Below are positions 29,005 to 41,699 of a stretch of DNA of 41,699 bases, one piece after another. The notes under the pieces are model-generated. The model made no database searches, was not told where the DNA came from, and worked only from the letters and a program-made list of their open reading frames with translations. The DNA is from a virus. Taxonomy: Duplodnaviria; Caudoviricetes. Numbering within the stretch: the first letter of the stretch is position 1; each line of letters starts with the position of its first letter. The DNA lies in IMG/VR virus record IMGVR_UViG_3300046703_000022, positions 1-41,699 of that record. One strand, written 5' to 3'. A program made the position numbers and the translations under genes.

Positions 29005-29232
29005 ATGCTAGATAAAATAAAACATCATTTAATTGAAATATTTGCATGTATGTTTTTAATATTATTTATTGATTGGAGCGTTGGCTATTATGCTAACGCT
29101 CTTTTTAATACCAAATTTGACCTGCAAAGTTGTTGGGGTGGAGTTGCTGCGCTTGGTGGATCAGGTACACTTGCAGCAATCAAGTACATTTACGACTCTA
29201 AATATAACAGCGAGGAGAATAAACCATTATGA
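29005..29232 (+). CDS. Holin
   Basis: 75 aa, two hydrophobic segments, overlaps the lysin start; AGGAGG RBS. Confidence 0.65.
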   Translation: MLDKIKHHLIEIFACMFLILFIDWSVGYYANALFNTKFDLQSCWGGVAALGGSGTLAAIKYIYDSKYNSEENKPL

Positions 29233-29804
29233 CAAATGAAGAACTTGCAAAAGAAATAGCACTAGGTATTATCAATACAGGTGTAGAAGGTGGCTATGAC
29301 AACGTGTGTTGCTCTACAGCAGGAGATTACCCTTGCATGGGTGTTTCGTCATGGGAAGGAATAAACGGGCGTGGTGATGCTTTACTGTCCTGTATAGATG
29401 GTGGACAAAAGTTTATAGGTAGAACATATAGCGATATCAGAGATAATGGAGAAAGGCAAGAACTAAAAAGTTTACTCAATTCAGAGCAAGGACAACTAGC
29501 ACAACAGGCTATTCTTACACAAGATTGCCTTGATTTATATGTTCCAGTACTGAATGAAGTTGAGAATCTTGATGATAGTAAATGTTTTATTTATGCTGGT
29601 ATATGGTGTCCTACTTCTCACTATGTTGTAAAAAACTTCTTGCGTAAACGCCAAGACAATCATGATATTAGAAATATAGAAGAATTAAAGGATATTTTCC
29701 GTGATCAATATTATATTGCTGCAGATGTGGGTGACCAATATGCAGAAGGGTATGCAAACCGAGCAGTAAACACTTATGACTATGTGAGTAATTTATCATG
29801 TTAG
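29229..29804 (+). CDS. Putative endolysin (lysozyme-like)
   Basis: Between holin and spanin-like genes; GVEGGYD.V...GDYP.MGVSSW, GYANR. Confidence 0.65.
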   Translation: MTNEELAKEIALGIINTGVEGGYDNVCCSTAGDYPCMGVSSWEGINGRGDALLSCIDGGQKFIGRTYSDIRDNGERQELKSLLNSEQGQLAQQAILTQDCLDLYVPVLNEVENLDDSKCFIYAGIWCPTSHYVVKNFLRKRQDNHDIRNIEELKDIFRDQYYIAADVGDQYAEGYANRAVNTYDYVSNLSC

Positions 29805-30181
29805 ATAAAGCGAAGGAGTTTTTACAAAATGAAAAGAAGTATATCATTATTGCTATTGTGTTGCTTGTTGTTGGGATTGTCGCCTGGGATGTGTTCAGCA
29901 AACCAAATGGATCAGCAGAAATTGGAGAGGTTAGATCAAATCTTCAATCAGTTGGAGACGAACAACAGCGAACAGCTGATGCAATTGCAGAAAGTAAACG
30001 ACTTGCTGAACAACTCAGACAAGCAAATATTAGAATTGAACAAGCAAGTAACAATATCCAACAGTCAAATAACTCTATTAGAAGCACAGTTGACCAAAGC
30101 GAACAGCTCAATAAGTCAAGCGCAGACCTCATTGCGGATGGCAAACGAATCGTTAAGCAGTTACGAGAAGAAAACAAATGA
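29798..30181 (+). CDS. i-spanin (Rz-like)
   Basis: N-terminal TM (YIIIAIVLLVVGIVAW) plus long coiled coil; follows the lysin. Confidence 0.65.
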   Translation: MLDKAKEFLQNEKKYIIIAIVLLVVGIVAWDVFSKPNGSAEIGEVRSNLQSVGDEQQRTADAIAESKRLAEQLRQANIRIEQASNNIQQSNNSIRSTVDQSEQLNKSSADLIADGKRIVKQLREENK

Positions 30182-30254
30182 TGAGATACGCTCTTTGAGA
30201 TTGCAGAGGGATGTAGTTATTGTGGGGATTGTAGCGTTATTGTTTAAAAAGTGA
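29829..30254 (+). CDS. Overlapping spanin partner (Rz1-equivalent)
   Basis: +1 frame inside the previous gene; AAGGAG RBS; signal peptide, coiled coil, C-terminal hydrophobic tail. Confidence 0.6.
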   Translation: MKRSISLLLLCCLLLGLSPGMCSANQMDQQKLERLDQIFNQLETNNSEQLMQLQKVNDLLNNSDKQILELNKQVTISNSQITLLEAQLTKANSSISQAQTSLRMANESLSSYEKKTNDEIRSLRLQRDVVIVGIVALLFKK

Positions 30255-30255
30255 T

Positions 30256-30333
30256 TTGCTACCGACATCAATGTCGGAGACAAGCGATATTGCCAACGTC
30301 GGCAAAATGGTCGCGAAGTCAATTTCGTTACCA
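30256..30333. repeat. Three tandem imperfect palindromes
   Basis: TTGCTACCGACAT-CA-ATGTCGGAGACAA; TTGCCAACGTCGGCAA; TGGTCGCGAAGTCAATTTCGTTACCA. Confidence 0.7.
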
Positions 30334-30380
30334 AAAAAAGCCACTATCAAGTCGTAATTGACTCGGTAGTGGCTTTTTTA
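30333..30380. terminator. Bidirectional terminator ending the late operon
   Basis: AAAAAAAGCCACTATC...GGTAGTGGCTTTTTT. Confidence 0.85.
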
Positions 30381-30439
30381 TTTAACCTATTATTTTATGC
30401 AGATAAATGTAGAATATACTGTTAATTTTTATAAAACTA

Positions 30440-30448
30440 TGATATAAT
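30440..30448 (+). promoter_or_regulatory. rep promoter (extended -10)
   Basis: TG-A-TATAAT. Confidence 0.65.
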
Positions 30449-30520
30449 AAAACAAAACACCTAATCGCTCTCGACAAGCAATTAGGCATGTTACCCTTAG
30501 CAGAGGGCAATTAATCTATT
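30448..30520 (-). ncRNA. Antisense counter-transcript (ctRNA) to the rep leader, ~70 nt (ends approximate)
   Basis: Downstream of a consensus promoter; two hairpins that pair fully (with G-U) only on the minus strand; the second is followed by UGUUUUGUUUU. Confidence 0.7.
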
Positions 30521-30526
30521 GAGTTA

Positions 30527-30555
30527 ATTATATCAATTTAACCTTCTGCTGTCAA
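30527..30555 (-). promoter_or_regulatory. Consensus sigma-A antisense promoter
   Basis: TTGACA-17 bp-TATAAT on the minus strand. Confidence 0.85.
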
Positions 30556-30577
30556 TAAAGATAGTAGGAGGTTTTTT
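30540..30577 (+). terminator. Attenuator hairpin sequestering the rep RBS
   Basis: 14-bp stem AACCTTCTGCTGTC/GATAGTAGGAGGTT plus T-run; contains AGGAGG. Confidence 0.75.
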
Positions 30578-30579
30578 AT

Positions 30580-31773
30580 ATTTTAGCAATAAACCATATA
30601 CATCAAACGTGTTTATCACCTAATATTCATTTAAATAAGATACATCAAAGTGGAAAAGGATATATATCAATAGCACAAAAGCAAAGCAAATGGAAAGAAA
30701 AATATTATAGTCAATCTGAAATGGCTACGGCCGTAAATGATTGGTCAGGTAATGATATATATACTTCTCAAAATTGCTTTACTGGCCGGCGCCGGTCGTT
30801 AATGACAATAGAACAATTAGAGAACTTATATATAGATATTGATTGTTACAAAAACAATTTTACTCCTGAACATGCTTTATCGTCTGTAGAATACTTGGCC
30901 AATGAAGGTGATATACCATACCCTAGCATGATTGTAATGTCCGGCCGAGGGTTGCAGGTTATATGGAATATCATTCCTGAGCCGGCCGACAAAATACCAG
31001 TATGGCAAGACGTAGAAAACTGGTTATATGGAGAGTTAAAACATCTTGGCGCTGACAAGCAAGCAACAGACGTTGCAAGGGTGTTAAGACTATGCGGAAG
31101 TTATCATAGTGTAACAGGAAATCAAGTCCATTCTTTTGAATATCACGACCGGCCATTTGATCTTGGCCAACTACATGAAACATACATACCGGCGCCAATA
31201 TATAAGCCGATAAAGAAAACTACTGGCCGGCCGGCCAACGTAAAACATTTATTTACTCTTCATTCTTTGTTTTGGAATAGATTGCAGGATATTTGGCACT
31301 TGGTAACTATGCGTGATGGACAGTGTGAAGGAAATAGAGAAATGATATTATTTCTCTATCGGTATCATTCTTGTTGTTTTACTAGTGATCCAAAACAATC
31401 TTTGGCAGATACGTTAGATTTAAATAGTAGATTCCGGCCACCATTGCCAATAAATGAAGCTACTAACGCTACAAAGAGTGCAGAAAGGGCCTATGTAAAG
31501 GACAAGCATTATAAATTCAAAACACAAACAATTATTGATATGCTTGATATTTCCGATGATGAACAAATAGAAATGAAAAATTTGATTAGCAAGAAAGAAA
31601 AGTACCGTAGAAATAATATAAAAAGAAATACTGGCGCCAATACCAATAAACTAAAATCGGTAATTGATTTGTATTGTAGTGGGGTAAATAATGTTAGTGA
31701 AATAGAGAGAGTTACAGGAGTTACTAGAAAAACAGTTAGAAAATATATAGCGGATTGGAATAAGGGTGGGTAA
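30580..31773 (+). CDS. rep: Plasmid-type replication initiator (pIP404-like Rep, primase-like fold with C-terminal HTH); probable ATT start
   Basis: Open frame from ATT30580, 8 nt after AGGAGG; GYISIAQK, DIYTSQNCF, LYIDIDCY, SGRGLQVIW, DVARVLRL.GS, GNREMILF. Confidence 0.8.
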   Translation: MLAINHIHQTCLSPNIHLNKIHQSGKGYISIAQKQSKWKEKYYSQSEMATAVNDWSGNDIYTSQNCFTGRRRSLMTIEQLENLYIDIDCYKNNFTPEHALSSVEYLANEGDIPYPSMIVMSGRGLQVIWNIIPEPADKIPVWQDVENWLYGELKHLGADKQATDVARVLRLCGSYHSVTGNQVHSFEYHDRPFDLGQLHETYIPAPIYKPIKKTTGRPANVKHLFTLHSLFWNRLQDIWHLVTMRDGQCEGNREMILFLYRYHSCCFTSDPKQSLADTLDLNSRFRPPLPINEATNATKSAERAYVKDKHYKFKTQTIIDMLDISDDEQIEMKNLISKKEKYRRNNIKRNTGANTNKLKSVIDLYCSGVNNVSEIERVTGVTRKTVRKYIADWNKGG

Positions 31774-31836
31774 TAAATGCTTCTATAATTAGTAACCAAT
31801 CCTATAGCGTAATTATTATACAGAGGTGGCCAAAAC

Positions 31837-32169
31837 ATGAGCAAAAAGTTTTACGGATTAAAAAGGGACGATTACGAAACGGCCGTAATGTTTATTCAGC
31901 AATTACAGGAGGTTTTCCCCTTAGCATTTCCTAAAAAACCTAAAGATAAAGTACCTTTGATGATAGGAATAGACGAACAATTGTCTAACGAATTTAAAAT
32001 TGACAAGAAAATAATTAATAACTCTTTGAAGTTATGGTGTTGGGGTGGCCGGTACAGATCAGCATTATCTATTATAGGCGCCGGAAGGTTAGATTTGTAT
32101 GGTAATAAAGTAGGATTTGTATTAGATGGCCAACAGCGACCGGTAAATAATAAAAATAAGGTGGTTTGA
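31837..32169 (+). CDS. ProQ/FinO-family RNA chaperone
   Basis: FPLAF...PLMIGI...LKLWC.GGRY...GAGRLDLYG..VG.V matches the FinO-domain signature. Confidence 0.85.
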   Translation: MSKKFYGLKRDDYETAVMFIQQLQEVFPLAFPKKPKDKVPLMIGIDEQLSNEFKIDKKIINNSLKLWCWGGRYRSALSIIGAGRLDLYGNKVGFVLDGQQRPVNNKNKVV

Positions 32170-32175
32170 TGGGAT

Positions 32176-32328
32176 ATGGATATTTTATATAGAGTAATAG
32201 TAATGATATTTATAGTTATTCCAGGTGATTTTATTGCTGAAAAAATAGAAACATTTTGCGAGTGGTTAGAAAAAAAGTGTAATAGGTTTAGAAGATGGTC
32301 ACATTGTTTTTATTATAATATTAAATAA
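32176..32328 (+). CDS. 50-aa small protein with hydrophobic N-terminus
   Basis: MDILYRVIVMIFIVIPG...; last ORF before a terminator. Confidence 0.45.
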   Translation: MDILYRVIVMIFIVIPGDFIAEKIETFCEWLEKKCNRFRRWSHCFYYNIK

Positions 32329-32335
32329 TCCATCT

Positions 32336-32366
32336 GAGGTTAGCCGATTGGTTGACCTCTTTTTTA
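32336..32366 (+). terminator. Intrinsic terminator of the rep-proQ operon
   Basis: GAGGTTAGCC-GATT-GGTTGACCTC followed by a T-run. Confidence 0.8.
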
Positions 32367-32437
32367 TCTTAAAACGTTCGCAAAAGCATTTACAAGTATG
32401 TTAAAGTGTGATACAGTATAATAAAGGTGGTGAATTA

Positions 32438-32614
32438 ATGGATAAACTTTTAGATCCAAATCAGGTGGCTGCAATACTTAATGTATCACCTAAGACTGTC
32501 AGAGACTGGTTGAGAGCAGGTAAATTACAAGGGGTGAGAGCGGGTAAGTTATGGCGAGTAGAAAGCACAGAAGTCGGCAGATTTATCGAAGAAAATAAAA
32601 GTAAACGAAAATAA
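32438..32614 (+). CDS. Excisionase-like HTH_17 DNA-binding protein
   Basis: LLDPNQVAAILNVSPKTVRDWLRAGKLQGVRAGKLWRV. Confidence 0.85.
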   Translation: MDKLLDPNQVAAILNVSPKTVRDWLRAGKLQGVRAGKLWRVESTEVGRFIEENKSKRK

Positions 32615-35333: not shown

Positions 35334-35828
35334 GTGGAACTATACACCTTAGTTGCGTTAACTGAACGGTTTGATACAAAAGAAGCTACAATTCGATTTA
35401 GATTGAAACAATTTAGTGAGTACATAGAAACGGTAGGGCGAGGGAAAAACAGGCGTTACAGTGCCAATGCGTTGCCTGTAATAGAGTTTATCATGGACTG
35501 TTACGGTCAGAATATGAAGTCGTTGCAGATAGGTGACTTACTGGCTGAACAATACCCTAAAATCATTGACGTTGCGATTGAGGAAACTGGAATCGTAAAC
35601 GAAACGGATAGTATAAATGAAGTAGAAATGTTGGATAATGAACAGGTAAGAGCCATGCTTGCGGAGTTATTGAAGCGCGACATAGAAAAGGACAAGCGTA
35701 TTGATTTGTTAGAAAGTAAGTTATTGTGGCAAGGAGAATCGCAGTCAGCAAAGATTAATGATATGGCGATTGCGATCAGTGAAATTAGCAGGGTGCAGCG
35801 TAATAAAAGATGGTGGAAATTGTGGTAA
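35334..35828 (+). CDS. MerR-like HTH + coiled-coil protein with KRWWKLW tail (RacA / pSK1 Par-like)
   Basis: N-terminal wHTH (ATIRFRLKQFSEYI..GRGKNRRYS), coiled coil, C-terminal basic-aromatic motif. Confidence 0.65.
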   Translation: MELYTLVALTERFDTKEATIRFRLKQFSEYIETVGRGKNRRYSANALPVIEFIMDCYGQNMKSLQIGDLLAEQYPKIIDVAIEETGIVNETDSINEVEMLDNEQVRAMLAELLKRDIEKDKRIDLLESKLLWQGESQSAKINDMAIAISEISRVQRNKRWWKLW

Positions 35829-36035: not shown

Positions 36036-36179
36036 GTGGTAGAATACAAGATTGTTGACTTCGGGGATCGACATAAGTGGTTTAAATGGAGTAAAATCGA
36101 TGGAATGTTTTATGTAAGTAAAAGGTATATTAGGTTGTTTAAGTTTAAATTTAAGAAATATAAAGCGCGGGGCTGTTAA
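36036..36179 (+). CDS. 47-aa basic protein convergent with the repressor (not in ORF track)
   Basis: GAGGGG RBS with GTG; MVEYKIVDFGDRHKWF...KARGC. Confidence 0.5.
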   Translation: MVEYKIVDFGDRHKWFKWSKIDGMFYVSKRYIRLFKFKFKKYKARGC

Positions 36180-36550
36180 TCAGTTTTCCGCGCTTTTTTT
36201 ATTTGTATTATAAAATTAATTGCTTCATCTAACTCGGCTGGCGTAATGTCAGCCTTTTTTGCTTTGTCCGCTAAAACTATATAATTTATCAGATTGCTGT
36301 CTGCTAATATATTTTTCGTTTTATTATTAATTTCAAAGTCTTCTAATGAAACATAATTTTCATTTAAGAAAAAATCAACTGGCATTTCAAAATACTTTGC
36401 CATCTTTAAAGTGTTATCTTCTGAAAACTGACTAATACCTCTTTCAACATTGGACACCATGGCAGATGTTACTTCCAGGTACTTTGCCAATTCTGTTGCT
36501 GTTTTACCTTTTTTCTTTCTAACATATCTAACTTTTTCGCCATACTTCAT
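36176..36550 (-). CDS. CI-like XRE-family repressor (no peptidase domain)
   Basis: GEKVRYVRKKKGKTATELAKYLEVTSAMVSNVERG; divergent from the early operon. Confidence 0.88.
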   Translation of the reverse strand: MKYGEKVRYVRKKKGKTATELAKYLEVTSAMVSNVERGISQFSEDNTLKMAKYFEMPVDFFLNENYVSLEDFEINNKTKNILADSNLINYIVLADKAKKADITPAELDEAINFIIQIKKARKTD

Positions 36551-41296: not shown

Positions 41297-41699
41297 ATGG
41301 CAGACGTTAAGTGGATAAAAATTTACACAGATATGTTGAATAATAAAAAGATTAAAAGAATTAGAAAAATGCCAGAAGGTAATAACATAATTCTTATATG
41401 GGTATTCCTTTTAACAACAGCAGGAGAATCAAACAAGAACGGTGGACTATTTTTAACCGACACAATACCATTCAATGAAGAAGATTTGTCGATTGAATTT
41501 GATTTTGATGTTTCTGTTATAAAATTTGCTTTAATAACTCTTGAAAAATTCCAAATGGTTGAGATTTTTGATTCAATAATTTATATAAAAAATTGGTCAG
41601 AATATCAAAACGTTGAAGGATTGGACAAAATGAGAGAGCAAACAAGGTTAAGAGTTGCCAAACATAGAGAATTAAAGCAATTAGAACAACCTGTAACGC
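41297..41699 (+). CDS. Phage replisome organiser (N-terminal domain; truncated by window edge)
   Basis: MADVKWIKIYTDMLNNKKIKRIRKMPEG...IKNWSEYQN; AGGTGA RBS; no stop before the end. Confidence 0.88.
   Translation, partial: MADVKWIKIYTDMLNNKKIKRIRKMPEGNNIILIWVFLLTTAGESNKNGGLFLTDTIPFNEEDLSIEFDFDVSVIKFALITLEKFQMVEIFDSIIYIKNWSEYQNVEGLDKMREQTRLRVAKHRELKQLEQPVT

Follow-up and report, generated by a model that had tools for sequence, protein, structure and literature searches.

A probable plasmid-type replicon with a predicted antisense attenuator and an adjoining FinO/ProQ gene in a likely Bacillota phage

Why would a phage genome carry, side by side, a plasmid-type replication gene, a leader crossed by an antisense promoter and a gene for a FinO/ProQ-domain protein, a family that reviews treat as proteobacterial (PMC9977716, PMC9037510)? 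The question is raised by a cassette on the 41,699-base stretch of DNA analysed here (the window, or G000 among its relatives), which is a single virus record classed as linear and 98% complete. We propose that the window likely belongs to an integrase-less temperate phage whose cassette serves as a plasmid replicon. That the prophage replicates as a circular plasmid under antisense attenuation seems to us highly probable; that the ProQ protein acts on the antisense RNA, stabilising it and holding the prophage at low copy number, is a reading towards which our analysis leans slightly.

The first part of the answer lies upstream of the replication gene, rep, where the following elements are predicted:

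30419..30448, plus strand: sense promoter with a weak -35 and an extended -10 (TG-n-TATAAT at 30440-30448)
30455..30579, plus strand: 125-nucleotide rep leader, the attenuator and antisense target (folding z -5.1; 0/200 shuffles as good)
30527..30555, minus strand: antisense promoter TTGACA-17-TG-n-TATAAT (12/12 consensus match)
30450..30520, minus strand: counter-transcribed RNA of ~70 nucleotides with two hairpins, from promoter and terminator motifs and the fold
30457..30489, minus strand: the antisense RNA's intrinsic terminator, which has a U-rich tail, from the terminator scan; predicted ProQ binding site
30540..30577, plus strand: attenuator terminator, from scan and fold, whose 3' arm holds the rep Shine-Dalgarno (SD) sequence AGGAGG (30566-30571)
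30498..30507, plus strand: antiterminator, located in the loop and 3' arm of the target hairpin 30491-30510, which pairs with 30542-30551

Sense transcription would start near 30455, giving a leader of 125 nucleotides up to codon 30580, and TG-n-TATAAT is the top sense site in all five leaders examined. A preliminary description of this DNA had reported a structured leader of about this length and a perfect TTGACA-17-TATAAT promoter firing across it, and both are present, the promoter at 30555-30527 on the minus strand and with a TG besides. Promoters and terminators were scanned between 29000 and 33500 and site counts compared with those in shuffles: the 22 promoter-like sites are at shuffle level (20.3 +/- 4.5), with the antisense promoter the sole 12/12 site among them, and the 7 terminator-like sites exceed the expectation of 2.0 +/- 1.3, three of them framing the cassette (on the minus strand 30489-30457, and on the plus strand the attenuator terminator, 30540-30573, and a terminator behind proQ, 32336-32359). 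The antisense strand itself folds better than nearly all of its shuffles (z -3.65; 1/200 as good). Two-hairpin antisense folds are predicted also for the related phages G001 and G003, which together with the window carry what we call type A leaders, and whose antisense promoters read TTGACA/TATACT and TTGACT/TACAAT, respectively.

What the preliminary description overlooked in its structured leader is the SD-holding terminator on the plus strand and the antiterminator at 30498-30507, which together make the leader a predicted attenuator. The antiterminator lies within the hairpin that the antisense RNA covers, and its partner is the 5' arm of the terminator; this duplex reaches -16.2 kcal/mol against -8.7 +/- 2.0 kcal/mol in shuffled leaders (1/1000 as good), and the same test gives 6/1000 in G001 and 0/1000 in G003. 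Folding of successive prefixes of the window leader predicts the ON helix at 95-110 nucleotides and the terminator from 115 nucleotides, and such an ON-to-OFF switch with transcript length is predicted in 3/3 type A leaders, even though G001 and G003 share only 74% and 70% leader DNA identity with the window and their hairpin sequences differ; the antiterminator helix is kept, and the SD-holding terminator hairpin recurs in both and in phage IEBH. Sequence motifs supply the promoter and terminator of a counter-transcript, as in attenuators of the pT181/pIP501 type, and the predicted folds and shuffle tests supply mutually exclusive antiterminator and terminator helices in all type A leaders. 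Transcription attenuation with SD occlusion, of the pT181 type, would describe this leader better than translational blocking of the FinP/FinO type. Duplexes between non-cognate antisense RNAs and leaders of the three type A phages are predicted at -30 to -60 kcal/mol, compared with -124 to -140 kcal/mol for cognate ones, as expected of incompatibility types.

Rfam returned no match near the gathering score for 30200-32500, which places the leader in no described family of counter-transcribed RNAs, and the same holds for the regions of the relatives L072 and G004, for IEBH, for pIP404 and for one Bacillaceae plasmid. Viral contigs searched with a DNA pattern of the attenuator's core gave six matches, one real (G001) and five judged to be chance. 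Pair counting on an alignment of the three leaders was discarded, the hairpin region being misregistered.

The gene that this leader would control is a plasmid-type rep, as the preliminary description had it:

30580..31773, plus strand: Rep of the pIP404/IEBH family, 397 residues, likely ATT start, with a primase-polymerase-like N-terminus and a C-terminal helix-turn-helix (HTH)

The predicted protein is 36% identical to the Rep of pIP404 over 96% of its length (E 9e-62), and it matches 629 records in a set of 72,556 from plasmids, with clostridial ones, pIP404 included, scoring best, as well as 16 phage records including IEBH (E 5e-26). It also matches the family phrog_9432 (E 4e-34). This near full-length similarity places it in the pIP404/IEBH family, one member of which replicates on its own in the plasmid prophage IEBH, where a ~2-kb rep fragment replicates as a plasmid (PMC4113786). 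The match to PrimPol is weak (E 0.22), scans of viral contigs for Rep found nothing, and the scan of genomes gave a single distant match, in Tumebacillus. An open frame extends from 30568 as far as 31773, and the SD sequence is followed after 8 nucleotides by the ATT codon at 30580, where the homologues P0006 and P0007 (74% and 72% identity) start with MLAINH and where a related contig has TTG; this codon is most likely the start.

Whether such a gene serves as the prophage replicon depends on the phage around it. The record holds terminase, portal and capsid genes, together with a repressor and an initiator apart from Rep:

36176..36550, minus strand: cI-like repressor (HTH_3 and PHROG repressor families), which points to a temperate life style
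41297..41699, plus strand: lytic initiator, a phage replisome organiser (PF09681, 131 bits), cut by the contig end

No integrase was detected in this 98% complete record, neither a tyrosine integrase nor a resolvase-type domain (the integrase searches covered G000-G007 and, for PF07508, G000 and G001), so that a plasmid Rep, a repressor and virion genes stand in one genome from which an integrase is missing. A 43,305-base contig from the probable source run shows zero differences over the cassette, although it is not independent, and reaches ~1.6 kb beyond the window end, a length that roughly matches the missing part of the initiator together with the 429-residue gene that comes next in the complete record G003. 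Runs X2-X5 contained parts or relatives only. These observations bear on an alternative in which the cassette is no working replicon: Rep would be accessory or, with its ATT codon, untranslated, and the phage would either be lytic or owe its integration to a gene in the unsequenced gap. The non-canonical start, the linear and 98% complete record, the separate initiator and an origin that was not found would all suit it, but the rep frame is intact with an N-terminus that agrees with the starts of its homologues, the contig extension is about as long as the genes expected there, in the complete G003 the cassette occurs without an integrase, and a cI-like repressor is present; we regard this alternative as very improbable. 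FinP/traJ-type control of conjugation was also considered and dismissed, no transfer genes being among the open reading frames (ORFs) seen.

The third component is the putative RNA chaperone:

31837..32169, plus strand: single-domain FinO/ProQ protein, 110 residues, isoelectric point 9.7, 12.7 kDa (PF04352 and fold match)

A profile search bears out the FinO/ProQ assignment, with 58.9 bits to PF04352 against a cut-off of 27, and a structural model (predicted local distance difference test, pLDDT, 81.6) matches RocC, Lpp1663, NMB1681 and FinO (best E 2.4e-5, template modelling score 0.68, probability 1.0). The E. coli ProQ positions G37, K54, R62 (as Lys), R69, Y70 (Y73 here) and R80 (R84 here) are kept. 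Three pairwise ratios of nonsynonymous to synonymous substitution (0.072, 0.055 and 0.09, with synonymous sites near saturation in two pairs) indicate that proQ is under purifying selection. FinO domains bind a hairpin with a 3' tail (PMC9977716); translation is the level at which the plasmid members known so far act. The rarity of the family in Firmicutes, also claimed at the outset, is supported by its presence in 0 of 401 Bacillota genomes sampled evenly from the phylum; a review places it in four proteobacterial classes (PMC9977716), and 36 of the 37 plasmid records matched by the window ProQ are from Burkholderiales (Burkholderia, Mycetohabitans, Caballeronia, Cupriavidus), one Pseudomonas making up the rest. 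Close homologues are few, with four clusters at 90% identity and one at 50%, and the next scores drop to 97 from 224 bits. Genome scans for ProQ relatives found none; peptide-pattern scans missed the ProQ of G003, which a Pfam search caught, and therefore undercount. In G003 (L163:1453-1959) ProQ is followed, after one stop codon, by an in-frame domain resembling the RNA polymerase alpha C-terminal domain (alphaCTD), and the proteins P0128 and P0132 are unbroken ProQ-alphaCTD fusions.

Is ProQ part of the copy control? Here the related phages are informative. Records from 80 portal loci were kept if their portal identity was 51% or more and their completeness 90% or more, which gave G001-G007; adding the window and a partial metagenome contig, L072, which was reached by way of proQ and is hence biased towards it, brings the comparison set to nine (fragments, the distant records G011 and G012, and L073, with proQ at the contig start, were left out). 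The leader occupies the same slot in five of the nine, as type A in G000, G001 and G003 and as type B in L072 and G004, and is missing from G002, G005, G006 and G007. proQ is present in 4/5 leader-bearing and 0/4 leader-less records (Fisher p 0.04, for records that are not independent). A tyrosine integrase is found in G005-G007 and not in G000-G004, a resolvase-type domain in none of G000-G007, and the integrase-bearing phages have neither leader nor proQ. From this distribution we conclude that the cassette occupies phages lacking integration genes, and that leader and proQ persist when the initiator between them is exchanged.

The payload behind the leader indeed varies, and proQ persists beside three unrelated kinds: the pIP404-type Rep of the window, a DnaD-like initiator in G001 and G003, and ~500 nucleotides lacking an ORF in L072 and G004. 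The G001 initiator (L001:5041-5940), which is of a lytic type with internal repeats and DnaA-box-like motifs, replaces the plasmid Rep, and G001 retains the last ~55 nucleotides of the window's rep as a remnant; this initiator has a full-length relative on a 16-kb Bacillus plasmid, and its 62 other loci are ordinary prophage initiators with no proQ match. In G003 a GIY-YIG-like ORF (L163:130-549, below the Pfam cut-off) stands directly 3' of the attenuator and overlaps the start of the initiator; it may be a homing element or serve in translational coupling. The type B leaders of L072 and G004 are 80% identical to each other and longer, with the terminator ~200 nucleotides in and, at matching positions in the two, an antisense terminator, which in L072 is equivalent to that at 30457..30489 in the window. 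In these regions (L072:9150-10000; L171:4950-6010, minus strand, for G004), each with a DnaA-box-like motif upstream, the leader is followed by ~500 nucleotides with no frame above 66 residues (longest stop-free frames 66 in L072 and 62 in G004), then by proQ in L072 or another small ORF in G004, and then by ParA, which also adjoins the cassette in L073. The ORF-less stretches share no protein similarity (best E 0.5), have short DNA matches only and match no plasmid; their folding against mononucleotide shuffles is unremarkable in L072 and stronger in G004, and they may hold a degraded gene.

The earlier proposal that a counter-transcribed RNA and a phage-encoded chaperone set the copy number of an extrachromosomal prophage is supported in its replicon part, by the plasmid Rep, the lack of an integrase and the conservation of the antisense unit among relatives. 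For its chaperone part, action of ProQ on the antisense RNA is favoured because of the linkage to the leader (4/5 versus 0/4) and because of a precedent in FopA of pCol1B9, which stabilises Inc RNA and speeds Inc-repZ pairing sevenfold (PMC9977716).

Several observations weigh against this chaperone role or against the replicon it would serve. They concern in part the downstream half of the cassette:

31760..31789, plus strand: conserved box ahead of proQ, likely proQ's own promoter, with a -10-like TATAAT-type hexamer at 31784-31789
32176..32328, plus strand: hydrophobic ORF of 50 residues, no Pfam match
32336..32366, plus strand: terminator behind proQ and the small ORF, from the terminator scan

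The preliminary description had joined promoter, leader, rep, proQ, small ORF and terminator in one operon; all of these parts exist, but a single operon is not established because the TATAAT-type box precedes proQ. The box is conserved in three phages, being kept in G001 as part of the remnant of the lost rep 3' end and recognisable in G003, and proQ probably has a promoter of its own; the small ORF is missing from the closest relative, G001, and is no conserved part of the cassette. G004 has a leader and no proQ, so ProQ is not obligatory, and G002 lacks integrase, leader and proQ alike, so a missing integrase alone does not predict the cassette. The linkage of proQ to the leader may moreover be hitch-hiking, because recombinational swaps keep the flanks. 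At the position of E. coli R58 the window ProQ has Asn (N61), as do its close homologues in a column that varies across the subfamily, and it has Met at the position of K35; as R58, Y70 and R80, which lie on the concave face and serve RNA binding, are essential in E. coli ProQ (10.1101/2023.04.25.538249), one of three essential residues is changed. In the full-length leader the terminator is the minimum-energy fold, so that the ON state hinges on folding kinetics. The window cassette yielded neither iterons nor DnaA boxes, and the replication origin was not located. Lastly, the genes that follow rep in the phages PfNC7401 and 0105phi7-2 have no Pfam match, which leaves a chaperone neighbour in one of three cases, that of IEBH.

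Some of these points suggest that the attenuator replicon is real while ProQ is independent cargo, expressed from its own promoter, binding terminator RNAs elsewhere in phage or host and staying by the leader because module swaps fall between both flanks. Besides the promoter-like box and the proQ-less G004 with its near-identical leader, such cargo would account for a ProQ that is 88% identical between phages whose antisense sequences diverge; ProQ may also have further roles, to judge from the alphaCTD fusions seen in near homologues, and pT181 needs no chaperone of its own to function, even when in E. coli (PMC5435934). However, FinO domains recognise shape and not sequence, and those plasmid-borne members that have been characterised serve the element that carries them, mostly through one target (PMC9977716); none of the four leader-less relatives has proQ, and IEBH fills the same slot with another RNA chaperone. 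We consider cargo status possible but unlikely.

If ProQ does act on the antisense RNA, the cassette could work as follows. RNA polymerase would start near 30455, the sequence being seen and the transcription of both sense and antisense RNAs inferred from it. At 95-110 nucleotides, according to the predicted folds, the antiterminator 30498-30507 would capture the 5' arm of the terminator, allowing read-through, a free SD sequence and synthesis of Rep from its weak ATT start. By analogy with pT181, an antisense RNA whose level tracks copy number would pair first with the target hairpin, upon which the terminator would form, the transcript end and the SD sequence be buried. Rep, to judge from IEBH and pIP404, would initiate replication of the circular prophage. 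In the least certain step, modelled on FopA and FinO, ProQ would bind the terminator hairpin and U tail of the antisense RNA, protect it and speed its pairing, and the prophage would be held at low copy number. Leader and proQ would form a fixed frame in which initiator and antisense loops are swapped between phages, giving rise to incompatibility types.

A variant of this scheme dispenses with the antisense RNA as ProQ's ligand: ProQ would repress rep by binding the sense leader directly, favouring the terminated, SD-occluded fold or binding the terminated leader, whose end is a hairpin with a U tail. PcnR of IncI2 binds a stem-loop in its rep leader with no antisense RNA involved, but a free 3' end is required for binding (PMC9977716), which the leader has only after termination, and the terminators of types A and B differ where the ProQs are near-identical. 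This variant we judge improbable.

A broader reading, which we offer tentatively and with more doubt than assent, is that leader and proQ constitute a portable copy-control frame in Firmicute podophages, with the attenuator upstream, FinO/ProQ downstream and any initiator or none between them, and that in L072 and G004 the attenuated read-through RNA itself primes replication with no protein. Such a Rep-less, RNA-primed candidate would presumably resemble ColE1 or pLS20. Were this reading true, transcription attenuation would for the first time be a target of a FinO-domain chaperone, and for the first time such a chaperone would act outside the Proteobacteria; a new Rep-less, attenuation-gated replicon would be added.

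The surroundings of the cassette add two further features:

30327..30386, plus strand: strong hairpin with T runs (inverted repeat I2; folding z -8.9) that ends the lysis module and insulates the cassette
35334..35828, plus strand: MerR-HTH/coiled-coil DUF3967-like protein (Atlas clusters DUF3967/MerR_1, score 0.94)

The cassette begins right after the lysis genes and this hairpin, which has a counterpart at the same place in G001 and in L072/G004. Upstream of it lies a lysin-like ORF (29229-30254) with no Pfam or PHROG match and mostly unnamed Atlas clusters, followed by overlapping ORFs of 127 and 141 residues in different frames that look spanin-like. A box of ~28 nucleotides at 30397-30424, 5' of the sense -10 and nearly identical in G001, is possibly an operator coupling the replicon to the lysis-lysogeny switch. 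On the 3' side, at 32389-32614, a promoter-like site and an excisionase-like HTH gene (PF12728) are conserved in G001; the gene stands in a phage where the integrase search came up empty. The DUF3967-like protein, encoded in G000, G001 and G003, that is, with type A cassettes only, and not in G002, G004-G007 or L072, is a candidate single-protein partition factor, presumably akin to Par of pSK1.

The preliminary description had named a Firmicute host, and this is inferred and not demonstrated: the best Rep matches are from Clostridia, a portal homologue (42%) is labelled Firmicutes bacterium, and the DUF3967 clusters are mostly from Bacillota, which makes Bacillota the likely host phylum. Genome scans placed the close ProQ or Rep clade in no named genome, and queries with portal and lysin led to no named element from a Firmicute. 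The spanin-like ORFs after the lysin would, we assume, point to diderm Negativicutes. A full-text literature search came upon no FinO-domain protein described from a Firmicute or together with an attenuator, although most subscription journals and supplements lay outside it and family surveys there could list some. The parts are known separately from pT181, IEBH and FopA/PcnR; it is their combination that appears to be new.

We note that a conserved ProQ tied to an attenuator in a likely Firmicute phage would widen both the range and the mechanism of the family. The cassette would offer a small system for asking if a chaperone of their own benefits antisense attenuators, for which G004 and L072 form a natural pair without and with ProQ, and IEBH an Hfq counterpart. 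The swapped antisense loops could supply natural, likely orthogonal attenuators of ~125 nucleotides and small replicons for anaerobic Firmicutes, and the ORF-less variants raise the testable question of protein-free initiation.

Among known systems, pIP404 of Clostridium perfringens (NC_001388) shares the Rep family but not the organisation: in pIP404 a divergent gene for a copy-number protein lies upstream and a tract of AT-rich repeats downstream, neither of which the window has, and a scan of it found no SD-holding terminator, unlike the window. pIP404 also has an antisense RNA, RNA1. With pT181 of Staphylococcus the relation is reversed, the Rep proteins being unrelated (RepC of pT181 is a rolling-circle Rep), the window replicon being phage-borne and the leaders resembling each other in design, with no support from Rfam for homology. 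In both, a cis-encoded antisense RNA with two hairpins lies over the rep leader, the antiterminator sits in the target hairpin, and the terminator's 3' half holds the SD sequence (AGGAG in pT181, where the antisense attenuator acts over the repC leader); unlike the window cassette, pT181 is described without a chaperone in the available passages of the source (PMC5435934).

Closest in overall plan is the Bacillus phage vB_BceS-IEBH (NC_011167), which has the same Rep family (27% identity), an MLAI-type N-terminus and a phage context. Its cassette (L183:2150-4240) runs from a leader through a pIP404-family rep to an RNA chaperone gene, and on our reading its record has a promoter and a terminator for an antisense RNA, besides a terminator that holds the SD sequence and for which an antiterminator is predicted, this last without a shuffle control. 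The chaperone adjoining rep is Hfq (PF17209, 40 bits) and not FinO/ProQ, and IEBH, unlike the window, has a longer leader and ParM-like partition genes and is a siphovirus. The enterobacterial systems FopA/Inc/repZ, PcnR and FinO/RepX differ in being plasmid-borne and in working by translational control, through a pseudoknot or a leader peptide, and not by attenuation, and the closest named plasmid matches of the window ProQ subfamily are mostly from Burkholderiales; what they share with the window is a small FinO-domain protein on a replicon controlled by antisense RNA (PMC9977716, PMC7491321).

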